In this document: piece after piece, positions 1-14,254 of the stretch
How positions within the stretch are numbered: position 1 is the stretch's first letter
How the letters are laid out: each line of letters opens with the position of its first letter
IMG/VR virus record: IMGVR_UViG_3300008339_000034
Reading direction: 5' to 3' (one strand)
Length of the DNA stretch: 20,000 nt
Source: an uncultured virus (IMG/VR IMGVR_UViG_3300008339_000034)
Taxonomy: Duplodnaviria > Heunggongvirae > Uroviricota > Caudoviricetes
Notes under the pieces: model-generated
Told to the model about the DNA's origin: nothing
Databases searched by the model: none
What the model saw: only the letters and a program-made list of their open reading frames with translations
Position numbers and translations under genes: made by a program

Positions 1-608
1 GATACCCAAAGATTCTTAGCATCAGAACCCGTAACGTTTTTAAACTTAGCAGCAAAGCGAAGAACCTTTTGGTTGAAACGACCACCATAAGAGTAGACAA
101 CCAAAGTGGTATCGTTACCCCAGTTAGTAGCAGCTCTATTTGCAAATGATTTCACACCTGCAACTTTCAAAGTCTTGATAGAATCTAAGTTGTTAAATAT
201 AGCTTCGGCAGCGTGAGTAAAAGTTAAATCAAATGTAGCACCGTCAGAATAGTTAAAAGTAGAACTAGAACCTGTGTAAGCTAGAGTTACAGTTAAAAAT
301 CCTTGTAAATTACTATCTACATACTGAAGATACTGATCTGAAGTAGAAATCTTCAAAGAAGGTACAACACCAGTAAATGCAGTGTTATCGTAAAATACAC
401 GAAACTGCATACCTGTAATTTTTTCACTAGTAGAAGTGTTGTAGAAATGTAACGGAGCAACAGTTTTACCTACAGTAGTTGTAGCTACTTGATAACCTGA
501 GTCGATAACAACCCAATGCCCAGTTCCAGGAGAAGTGTTTGCACTTTGTGCAAATAAGTTAGTAGTGAGGATAAACAATCCCAACGCAAACAAAAGTATT
601 TTTTTCAT
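1..608 (-). CDS. Secreted protein with cohesin-like N-terminal domain (runs off window edge)
   Basis: Not in ORF track. ATG at 608 overlaps upstream TGA (ATGA). Hand translation MKKILLFALGLFILTTNLFAQSANTSPGTGHWVVIDSGYQ...EKITGMQFRVFYDNTAF... is open to position 1. Signal peptide ends LFA-Q; 'ITGMQFRVFYD' resembles a cohesin strand motif. Confidence 0.75.
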   Translation of the reverse strand, partial: MKKILLFALGLFILTTNLFAQSANTSPGTGHWVVIDSGYQVATTTVGKTVAPLHFYNTSTSEKITGMQFRVFYDNTAFTGVVPSLKISTSDQYLQYVDSNLQGFLTVTLAYTGSSSTFNYSDGATFDLTFTHAAEAIFNNLDSIKTLKVAGVKSFANRAATNWGNDTTLVVYSYGGRFNQKVLRFAAKFKNVTGSDAKNLWV

Positions 609-12796: not shown

Positions 12797-13069
12797 ATGT
12801 CAGAACAAAATGAAAACCCAGAAGAGTTTCAACTAGACAGTGTATTTGAAACTATTAAACAACTAGACCTTAACGGTGAAAGAGAAGGATTGATTGCTAT
12901 TGGTTATGTAGACCTTGGTGAGCAAACATCTGTTCGTGCGACTATCCAAGGAAAAAAAGGTCAACTTGTACAAACATTAGCTGCAGCTTTAGATAGCGAC
13001 AGAGACTTAAGGGACCTTTTCCAAAAAGCCATGCTGTACTCTATGGCTAAGCAAGTTGGTCAGGATTAA
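12797..13069 (+). CDS. Hypothetical protein (90 aa)
   Basis: ORF 17 nt after motif +1 at 12780. Confidence 0.75.
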   Translation: MSEQNENPEEFQLDSVFETIKQLDLNGEREGLIAIGYVDLGEQTSVRATIQGKKGQLVQTLAAALDSDRDLRDLFQKAMLYSMAKQVGQD

Positions 13070-13187
13070 CTACAAAGAATTATCTTTGTGCTGAACCCCT
13101 TTTGGGATAGTATCCCTTAACCGAAAGTTCCCACCTGCATACCGTTAAGAAGCTACGCTCTTAGATCTGCTCGTGGGACTTTTTCAT

Positions 13188-13312
13188 AGTCAGGTGGCGG
13201 AATGGTAAACGCTACCCAGATAACAGCCGAAAGGTGGGGATTAATCAGAATAGTTATTCTGCAAAGCACTAACGAAACAGATTAATTACAGGTTCGATTC
13301 CTGTCCTGACTA
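13188..13312 (+). ncRNA. tRNA-like RNA without a canonical anticodon arm
   Basis: Acceptor AGTCAGG/CCTGACT-A, D arm GCG-GAATGGTAAA-CGC, T arm ACAGG-TTCGATT-CCTGT; ~75-nt structured insert in between; no encoded CCA. Confidence 0.7.
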
Positions 13313-13325
13313 CTAATAAGACACT

Positions 13326-13354
13326 AGAAGGATTCTAAGTAATCCTTCTTTTTT
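13326..13354 (+). terminator. Intrinsic terminator
   Basis: AGAAGGATT-CTAAGT-AATCCTTCT plus T tract. Confidence 0.7.
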
Positions 13355-13462
13355 CTTTTCCTTTATACTCTGACTTTACTGGTTATCTGGTAATGTTCTC
13401 ATAGCGTCAGAGTTTTTGAAGTTCATATATCTGTTTCCCTTAGCAATAGGGGAAACATTTAT

Positions 13463-13537
13463 GGCCCGTTCGTCTAGCGGTTAGGACAATAGGATTTCAT
13501 CCTAGAAACAGAGGTTCAACTCCTCTACGGGCTACCA
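13463..13537 (+). tRNA. trnE: tRNA-Glu (TTC)
   Basis: GGCCCGT/ACGGGCT acceptor, D arm, anticodon loop AT-TTC-AT, T arm AGAGG-TTCAACT-CCTCT, encoded CCA. Confidence 0.9.
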
Positions 13538-13731
13538 AACAAACTCTCTTACAGAATATAGGTTAGCACTATTGAAAGAAGACTTGACTTATGGGAAGTA
13601 GCTACCCATAAGCATTAATGACTCAAGGATAGCTGTAATGGATCCTGCTCTGATGTGCACGTCAACAGGTTATGGGGAACAAACCATAAGTAAAATCCAC
13701 AACTACGGTAATCGTAGAAGAGAGTTTGTTT
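13537..13731 (+). ncRNA. ~195-nt multi-stem RNA candidate immediately 3' of tRNA-Glu
   Basis: 14-bp perfect closing stem AAACAAACTCTCTT/AAGAGAGTTTGTTT plus several nested internal helices. Confidence 0.65.
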
Positions 13732-13784
13732 TAGTTATTAAGAAGAACCACATGGGATTGTCTAGTCTTATGTGGTTTTCATAG

Positions 13785-13818
13785 ATAGTCAGTCTTAACC
13801 GACTGACTATTTTCTTTT
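13785..13818 (+). terminator. Intrinsic terminator
   Basis: ATAGTCAGTC-TTAACC-GACTGACTAT then TTTCTTTT. Confidence 0.7.
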
Positions 13819-13873
13819 CTTATTCCTCCCTTCGGTCGGATTTTTTCTTTCCCTTTCTACTAATATCTGACCT

Positions 13874-14254
13874 ATGAGAAAAAGATTATCTAAAACAGTT
13901 GACGGTAAAACTTACGAGAGAGTTGATACCAGTCGTTTCTTCAGAGTTAAAGCGCGTTCTATTAAGAAAGCACTAGACAAACTTGAATTCATCCACACAC
14001 GGGAAGTTCGTGACATGTTCAGAAGTTTAACAGTCGATACCATATTGGCTGATAAGCGTGAAGCACGTGTTAACCTTACCTATAGGTTAGCAGTAGAGCA
14101 GGAAGTAACAATTCCTGTGAAAACTACTGTTCCTACTAGTTATAGAGAAACAGGTGATTTGGGATTTGGGTATCCCAAGTTCACACCCTGTAACTTTATA
14201 GAGCAACTACGTATGGTTAGAGAAATAATACCTACTGTGGGATGGATTGATTAG
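13874..14254 (+). CDS. Basic hypothetical protein (126 aa)
   Basis: ORF after motif +1 at 13859; terminator follows. Confidence 0.75.
   Translation: MRKRLSKTVDGKTYERVDTSRFFRVKARSIKKALDKLEFIHTREVRDMFRSLTVDTILADKREARVNLTYRLAVEQEVTIPVKTTVPTSYRETGDLGFGYPKFTPCNFIEQLRMVREIIPTVGWID

Follow-up and report, generated by a model that had tools for sequence, protein, structure and literature searches.

The Rfam freshwater-1 motif is the 3' domain of a larger structured RNA carried in the tRNA arrays of uncultured freshwater phages

Results

A structured RNA abuts the only ARAGORN tRNA gene of a crAss-like phage

The DNA under study, a stretch of 20,000 nucleotides referred to as the window, is taken from the minus strand of an IMG/VR virus record (IMGVR_UViG_3300008339_000034) that comprises 107,017 bp and is estimated to be 92% complete. 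PHROGs matches to tail proteins, an endolysin, a ParB-like protein and a DNA helicase identified this record as a tailed phage. The closest cultured relatives of its helicase, at ∼27% identity, were found in phages of Flavobacterium, Bacteroides and Cellulophaga, including crAss-like genera. The window belongs to a 107-kb crAss-like phage, the host group of which is probably the Bacteroidota.

No ORF of 50 or more amino acids overlapped positions 13070–13873 on either strand, and this region was occupied by the RNA features listed in Table 1. When the whole 107-kb genome was searched with ARAGORN, tRNA-Glu was the sole tRNA and no tmRNA was called; the structured RNA, present as a single copy in its own genome, directly adjoins this tRNA, the final A of the encoded CCA being at the same time base 1 of the closing stem P1 (13537). 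The tRNA-Glu gene and the structured RNA are together bracketed by two terminators. At both places (13326–13376 and 13783–13871) the terminator-like hairpin was followed by a pyrimidine-rich run, which terminates with CTGAC a short distance ahead of the next unit. A search of 13050–13900 for sigma-70-like promoters found none, against 1.8 expected.

Table 1. Features of the tRNA-Glu region and helices of the structured RNA (window coordinates; R1, covariance model of the full 195-nt structure)
Feature	Position	Strand	Observation
Long tRNA-like element, 125 nt	13188–13312	+	Rfam tRNA model
Terminator-like hairpin 5' of tRNA-Glu	13326–13349		Matches terminator at 13783–13812
tRNA-Glu (UUC), encoded CCA	13463–13537	+	ARAGORN; Rfam tRNA 55 bits
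Whole structured RNA, 195 nt	13537–13731	+	R1 match 13540–13731, 187.4 bits; P1 extends to 13537
P1 5' strand, A-rich	13537–13550	+	Pairs with 13718–13731
P2 5' strand ACAG	13551–13554	+	Pairs with CTGT 13633–13636
P3 hairpin ATAG / loop GTTAGCA / CTAT	13558–13572	+	4/4 pairs covary, 100% paired
Single-stranded TGAAAG between P3 and P4	13573–13578	+	Invariant in 32-sequence MAFFT alignment
P4 CTTGA/TCAAG, enclosing P5	13583–13627	+	7/7 modelled pairs covary, 97.9% paired
P5 hairpin CTTATGGG/CCCATAAG	13588–13612	+	Two tiers, 54–81% paired
L5, loop of P5, AAGTAGCTA	13596–13604	+	
P6 TGGAT/ATCCA, closes three-way junction	13639–13643 with 13695–13699	+	67.6% paired overall
P7/P7a hairpin, CCTG/CAGG around TGATG-TGCA-CGTCA	13644–13669	+	
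P8 hairpin TTATGG/CCATAA	13670–13689	+	Covaries in relatives
P9 hairpin CTACG-GTAAT-CGTAG	13703–13717	+	5/5 pairs covary, 99.5% paired where present
P1 3' strand, U-rich	13718–13731	+	14 Watson–Crick pairs
Hairpin between structured RNA and second terminator	13748–13775		
Terminator-like hairpin and T-run, end of tRNA-Glu/RNA unit	13783–13812	+	

The 3' domain is Rfam freshwater-1

Comparison with Rfam identified positions 13634–13695 (+) as RF02979, freshwater-1, with 79.7 bits against a cut-off of 72 (E 2e-17) and with model positions 1–62 of 62 aligned; the match exceeded the cut-off again when the whole genome was scanned. It spans the P7/P7a hairpin, the P8 hairpin and the 5' strand of P6. 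Aligned to the RF02979 consensus, the window RNA had zero non-canonical pairs and showed the same succession of an internal-loop hairpin with the conserved GUGCAC and a 6-bp hairpin with an 8-nt loop. The first-pass annotation, made from the letters alone, had proposed a new class of non-coding RNA. This proposal could not be upheld, as what it had drawn as the second domain of the RNA is the full-length RF02979 match, a strong match to a known family of the kind which it had itself named as speaking against novelty. A permissive scan of 12900–14000 with all 4227 Rfam families, accepting E-values up to 1, revealed nothing beyond freshwater-1 and two tRNA matches, and in that scan there was no match to GOLLD, ROOL, 6S, RNase P RNA, tmRNA, phi29 pRNA or Y RNA.

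The RF02979 entry comprises 62 nt and is of the Rfam type Gene; sRNA, whereas the unit to which the window RNA belongs is 175–205 nt long in its family. The two have the same two hairpins and the same conserved GUGCAC, but the full RNA adds a closing stem, a 5' domain of four helices and a third strand (P6) that closes a three-way junction. The 62 nt accordingly do not stand free as a small RNA of about that length but form an internal domain of a covarying unit, and the freshwater-1 motif is the 3' domain, about one third, of a larger phage RNA. The RF02979 cut-off was reached by 11 of the 20 family loci tested. The motif was reportedly introduced in the supplement of the 2017 study by Weinberg and colleagues. 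It is absent from the main text of that study (Weinberg 2017, PMC5737381), and a full-text literature search found no publication discussing freshwater-1 or RF02979, while the 2017 supplement may describe flanking structure or tRNAs.

Helical organization of the 195-nt RNA

The 195-nt sequence folded at −54.8 kcal/mol, compared with −37.7 ± 3.9 kcal/mol for 200 dinucleotide shuffles (z −4.42), none of which was as good. Its extent of ∼195 nt, three times that of the catalogued motif, had been drawn correctly in the first-pass annotation, and the helices named there were all present within 13537–13731 with Watson–Crick or G–U pairs throughout, among them the perfect 14-bp closing stem, all of whose pairs are Watson–Crick. 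That list of helices was sound as far as it went, but it missed P3, the loop of which had been taken instead for one strand of a pseudoknot.

Among relatives the sequence of P1 varied with compensation, and both-side changes were seen in eight of the eight modelled P1 pairs. The TT/AA flanking P2 could pair as part of either P1 or P2; P2 itself was 100% paired in 90 rows, with an innermost pair that was G–C in 65, U–A in 24 and C–G in one. The two tiers of P5 vary in length and aligned poorly. Of the P6 pairs, the central three are upheld by covariation, the outer two being weak. P9 is limited to the long form of the family and was missing from about half of the rows.

A family of 175–205-nt RNAs with covarying helices

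Relatives were collected by scanning for exact matches to a pattern of the freshwater-1 core, a pattern which itself fixes P7/P7a including GUGCAC. The scan returned 54 IMG/VR viral contigs and 98 metagenome stretches (80 among the matches listed), and in GTDB species genomes two contigs, of which one, a 2.9-kb MAG contig, carries a true member; the match in the other spans 24 nt and is due to chance. After exclusion of 21 loci with incomplete flanks, 133 loci with full flanks were reduced to 91 that were distinct in the examined region. R1, a covariance model of the full 195-nt structure, was built on a 32-sequence MAFFT alignment and searched in 92 sources, namely 90 of the 91 distinct loci, the window (which replaced L007, identical to it in the region examined) and L071. 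With R1, 89 distinct sequences scored 124–202 bits over the full model and two divergent members 61–73 bits, whereas for the GTDB chance match the score was 24 bits, over 24 nt. Equivalents of P1, P2, P3 and P4 were present in 91 of 91 distinct sequences. The architecture throughout consists of the P1 closing stem, the P2–P5 5' domain, the P6–P8 freshwater-1 junction and an optional P9, in a total of 175–205 nt. Two forms occur: in the long form P9 is present and P1 is long, and in the short form P9 is absent. Two relatives of the window's phage recognized by their helicase (81% and 48% identity) gave no R1 match in their fragments, which are 12% and 25% complete, respectively, and in the first of which the expected site lies off the contig.

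The two divergent members, L162 172–376(+) and L184 252–436(−), retain the freshwater-1 domain along with P2 (as ACUG/CAGU in L184), P4 and a P3 hairpin whose loop has 7 nt, and differ in having UGCAAG or a different P5; the family hence extends past the exact-core pattern. A looser core pattern applied to IMG/VR gave 78 loci with one new true member (L071), and 23 others were coding or chance matches. One such chance match, L090 (IMG/VR 3300000553_001328), carries ∼50 nt downstream the sequence CTCTGTACGGATCGCAACCGTAACAG, which resembles GGAUCGCAACC, the class II P5 loop hairpin of the family. L090 may represent some other, unrelated RNA with this hairpin in common.

In the R1 alignment standard pairs filled 89.7% of cells against 70.6% after shuffling, and both-side changes were found in 46 of 56 pairs. 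The covariation score was 0.447 against 0.159 for shuffled alignments, with none of 500 shuffles reaching it, and it fell to 0.02–0.08 when partners were slid by one to three columns. As the R1 alignment is fitted to the model, the count was repeated on a plain MAFFT alignment, where 89.1% of cells were paired and the covariation score was 0.352 against 0.140 (0 of 500 shuffles). One of five measures on the plain alignment lay below the shuffles: 61 further standard pair types were seen against a mean of 69.2, a value that 500 of 500 shuffles reached. Covariation, on which the first-pass annotation had made its RNA depend, was present on both alignments. P1, P2, P3, P4, P8 and P9 were well supported; P5 and the outer pairs of P6 were poorly supported as aligned; and the invariance of P7 and P7a, being imposed by the search pattern, is not independent evidence. 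In the 32-sequence alignment, the invariant nucleotides of the RNA were concentrated in its joining strands.

The pseudoknot that had been suggested between the loops of P3 and P5 found no such backing. Complementarity of TAGC with GCTA (4 bp) does exist in the window, but native partners averaged 2.63 contiguous Watson–Crick pairs in 27 distinct loop combinations against 2.73 in 626 non-native ones, and the 4 bp UAGC/GCUA of the window may be due to chance. Most other candidate tertiary pairs proved to be G–U-tolerant artefacts of relatedness. One pair, between the P3-loop C and the G in the AUG joining strand (C–G in 84 rows, U–A in five), is possibly real but stays tentative because the five U–A rows are close relatives. 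The motifs ACAGAA, GAAAG and AUGAC of the RNA presumably recall RNase P RNA; this likeness was rejected, since the order of the motifs differs and no Rfam match was obtained.

The RNA is placed in phage tRNA arrays

Neighbouring tRNAs were called by ARAGORN over the 91 distinct members. The end of a same-strand tRNA lay within 12 nt upstream in 63 of the 91, mostly at 0–4 nt, and the start of a same-strand tRNA within 30 nt downstream in 49, mostly at 0–9 nt; no opposite-strand tRNA was called by ARAGORN around the 91 members. The upstream tRNA could be any of nine isoacceptors, and of the 63 upstream tRNAs 22 encode CCA at the junction. The remaining 28 members, with no ARAGORN tRNA within 12 nt upstream, included some with long tRNA-like elements or other structured modules and some with short flanks.

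The long tRNA-like elements measured 109–125 nt and were located at 13188–13312(+) in the window, at 440–549(−) and 118–230(−) in L181, at 538–646(−) in L134 and at ∼175–287(+) in L045. Their acceptor stem, D arm and T arm are intact, and a structured insert of 50–70 nt replaces the anticodon arm; they scored 41–50 bits with the Rfam tRNA model, were missed by ARAGORN and adjoin members of the RNA family in several phage lineages. Other modules were observed between the upstream tRNA and the RNA in L001, L202, L195, L155 and L224 (78–82 nt), in L139, L175 and L196 (100–113 nt) and in L039 (153 nt). These gap-filling modules were of at least three other kinds, each with its own 5'–3' closing stem and a folding energy of −23 to −49 kcal/mol, indicating that the arrays hold several non-tRNA RNA families.

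By shared near-identical proteins, the carriers fell into 18 phage lineages. Clustering of the ORFs located up to 10 kb on either side of 55 loci revealed no linked protein partner, and no cluster occurred in more than six of the 18 lineages; the commonest flanking clusters had no Pfam match or matched RNaseH_like, glucosaminidase, DUF559 or helicase. As no protein family is common to more than six lineages, the RNA appears to travel with tRNAs and not with a protein gene. A blastn search of cultured phages with 13380–13850 retrieved the tRNA-Glu only (17 records), the RNA being absent at that sensitivity. The family is restricted to viral contigs and placed in the tRNA arrays of uncultured freshwater phages.

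The RNA is represented in RNA libraries

Words of 13380–13850 were shared by 20 sequencing runs, 18 of which are recorded as RNA. Contigs were placed for four runs of four studies, three riverine and one from lake water, chosen over the runs with a small share (X4 and X6–X20). All four contained contigs of 159–209 nt that lay wholly within 13537–13745 at 90–99% identity, and one metatranscriptome contig spanned exactly 13537–13745. In the four runs there was no contig cover upstream of the tRNA gene or beyond 13745, and two short contigs in runs X2 and X5 lay partly on the tRNA gene (13461–13539). No evidential weight is placed on stretches of 13380–13850 that lack contig cover. Such an isolated short piece fits a discrete stable RNA, with the provisos that contigs cannot show the ends of an RNA and that RNA libraries can also carry DNA; moreover, since different genomes have tRNA words in common, unitigs are expected to break at a tRNA border in any case. 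Contig record 2 of the riverine run X1 (238 nt, depth 44), which aligned to 13641–13687, represents another member of the family with AUGUAGGAG-type flanks, at a depth ∼20 times that of the window variant.

Discussion

So far, freshwater-1 has stood in Rfam as an orphan motif of 62 nt from unclassified metagenome sequence. The element described here is a freshwater-1 member by the Rfam test, and it departs from the catalogued entry in its extent, its architecture and the context assigned to it. The motif can now be assigned an owner (a tailed phage, here crAss-like), a slot in tRNA arrays, a length of ∼190 nt and nine helices, and it is evidenced as RNA in rivers and lakes. The full-length RNA and not the 62-nt fragment is therefore the proper object of study.

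We consider it rather probable that the family represents a stable RNA of ∼190 nt which is cut from phage tRNA transcripts by tRNA-processing enzymes and acts in trans. The RNA would be co-transcribed with the neighbouring tRNA or tRNAs and freed by the host enzymes that mature tRNAs. Its 5' end would be generated when the upstream tRNA is cut at its 3' end, by a cleavage of the RNase Z type if the CCA is not encoded, and by an endonuclease followed by trimming if it is. Where a tRNA follows downstream, an RNase P cut at the 5' end of the latter would create the 3' end of the RNA, a role that in the window would be taken over by the terminator. Both ends would be paired, and thereby protected, in the A-rich/U-rich P1. 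We infer this release route, including the enzymes, the exact ends and the stability of the product, from position, strand, spacing, the paired ends and the precedent of T4 (see below). An RNA released by tRNA processing had also been proposed in the first-pass annotation, and the tailed-phage genome, the abutting tRNAs and the RNA-library contigs provide a context that supports it. Action in trans would proceed through the conserved core, i.e. the three-way junction, the two joining strands of invariant sequence (UGAAAG and AUG(A/C)C) and the loops of P3 and P5, and would most likely consist of protein or RNA binding during infection. By analogy a partner may be bound in trans, and no partner protein emerged from the flanking ORFs.

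The tight junction with the upstream tRNA could alternatively be the work of the RNA itself, if it were a self-cleaving ribozyme of an undescribed class, whose cut at its own 5' end would also form the 3' terminus of the tRNA before it, a role proposed for HDV-like theta ribozymes in gut phages. This would agree with the start of the RNA 0–4 nt past the tRNA in most of the 63 members with a close upstream tRNA, a geometry identical to that of theta ribozymes, and with a complex fold whose invariant nucleotides cluster in the joining strands. We nevertheless find it very doubtful, for no catalogued ribozyme family was matched in Rfam (12900–14000, E up to 1), and Rfam 15 presumably includes the HDV-like/theta and other self-cleaving families; a length of ∼190 nt is far above the size of the known small self-cleavers; the CCA is already encoded in 22 of the 63 upstream tRNAs; and spacers on the 3' side, like those of rnaC and rnaD in T4, are equally short, which makes tight packing a general property of arrays. 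It appears quite improbable as well that the RNA is merely a structural spacer acting in cis within the tRNA operon, where it might keep neighbouring folds apart, direct nucleases or determine how fast the polycistronic tRNA precursor decays, and have no role after its release. A spacer would explain why the RNA is always on the tRNA strand, within or at the end of arrays, why P1 draws the flanking tRNA ends together and why unrelated closed-stem modules fill comparable gaps, yet nothing in such a role calls for some 50 positions that do not vary, for two junctions of several helices or for nine helices that covary, all kept over 18 lineages. Moreover, in the window's phage the RNA is retained next to one tRNA only, with none downstream, and the RNA-library contigs lie on the RNA rather than on the tRNA or the flanks, apart from the two short contigs of runs X2 and X5 mentioned above. 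That the RNA encodes a small protein has a virtually negligible probability: a 47-codon ORF can be read by eye from the ATG at 13638, but short-form members have no ATG (TTCAGG in place of AATGGA), the frame stops after 13 codons in GGACAGTAA members, and substitutions follow the paired RNA helices with no conserved frame.

A variant of the preferred reading, in which the released RNA would associate through self-complementary loops into a homodimer or oligomer and form an RNA-only assembly like ROOL, GOLLD and OLE, is in our opinion unlikely. The oligomers of these three RNAs are held together by kissing loops (Kretsch 2025, PMC12286853). The P5 loop of ∼52 members carries UAGCUA, UAAUUA or UCAUGA, three different hexamers that are all palindromic; their central tetramers (AGCU, AAUU, CAUG) vary and are still self-complementary while lying too close to pair within one hairpin, and the P7a loop with its closing pair forms the palindrome GUGCAC. 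However, ∼35 members have a non-palindromic P5 loop, (A/G/U)YCGCAA, the occurrence of only three palindrome types points to few independent events, and GUGCAC is imposed by the search pattern. On the whole it seems rather unlikely that the RNA works without protein, be it as a kissing-loop dimer or oligomer through the P5 palindromes and the GUGCAC of P7a, as a small cousin of ROOL and GOLLD, or as a new class of ribozyme that trims tRNA 3' ends. Should this be true, the tRNA arrays of freshwater phages would be operons of several catalytic or architectural RNA families besides tRNAs.

Among the known RNAs of phage tRNA regions, GOLLD and ROOL are described as RNAs of complex fold that are often found in phages or prophages, near tRNAs, and are possibly co-transcribed with them (PMC5737381). 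To that extent they are like the window RNA, with which they have in common a complex fold, an unknown function and the company of phage tRNAs. They are three to four times larger (ROOL averages 581 nt, PMC5737381), and oligomers have been demonstrated for them (PMC12286853), whereas an oligomer of the window RNA is conjectured only. Theta ribozymes, which are minimal HDV-like ribozymes, are reported to lie directly 3' of phage tRNA genes (Kienbeck 2024, PMC10879173), and they have the position immediately 3' of a tRNA in common with the family. The window RNA is much larger and has no HDV-like match in Rfam; theta ribozymes form a nested double pseudoknot, whereas the window RNA pairs its first strand with its last.

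Similar in arrangement are two genes of phage T4, rnaC (species 1, 139 nt) and rnaD (species 2, 119 nt), both annotated as small stable RNAs. Like the window RNA, they are non-tRNA RNA genes on the tRNA strand of a phage tRNA cluster, rnaD lying 1 nt past tRNA-Arg and rnaC 6 nt past rnaD. To our knowledge, the function of rnaC and rnaD is still unknown. The likeness is one of arrangement only, as R1 searched against T4 69500–74500 with filters off reached 5.9 bits (E 0.3) at best, at a place other than rnaC and rnaD, so that there is no detectable homology, and size and host group differ from those of the window RNA. The freshwater-1 family nonetheless extends the pattern set by rnaC and rnaD, in that genes for structured RNAs other than tRNAs are found within phage tRNA clusters.
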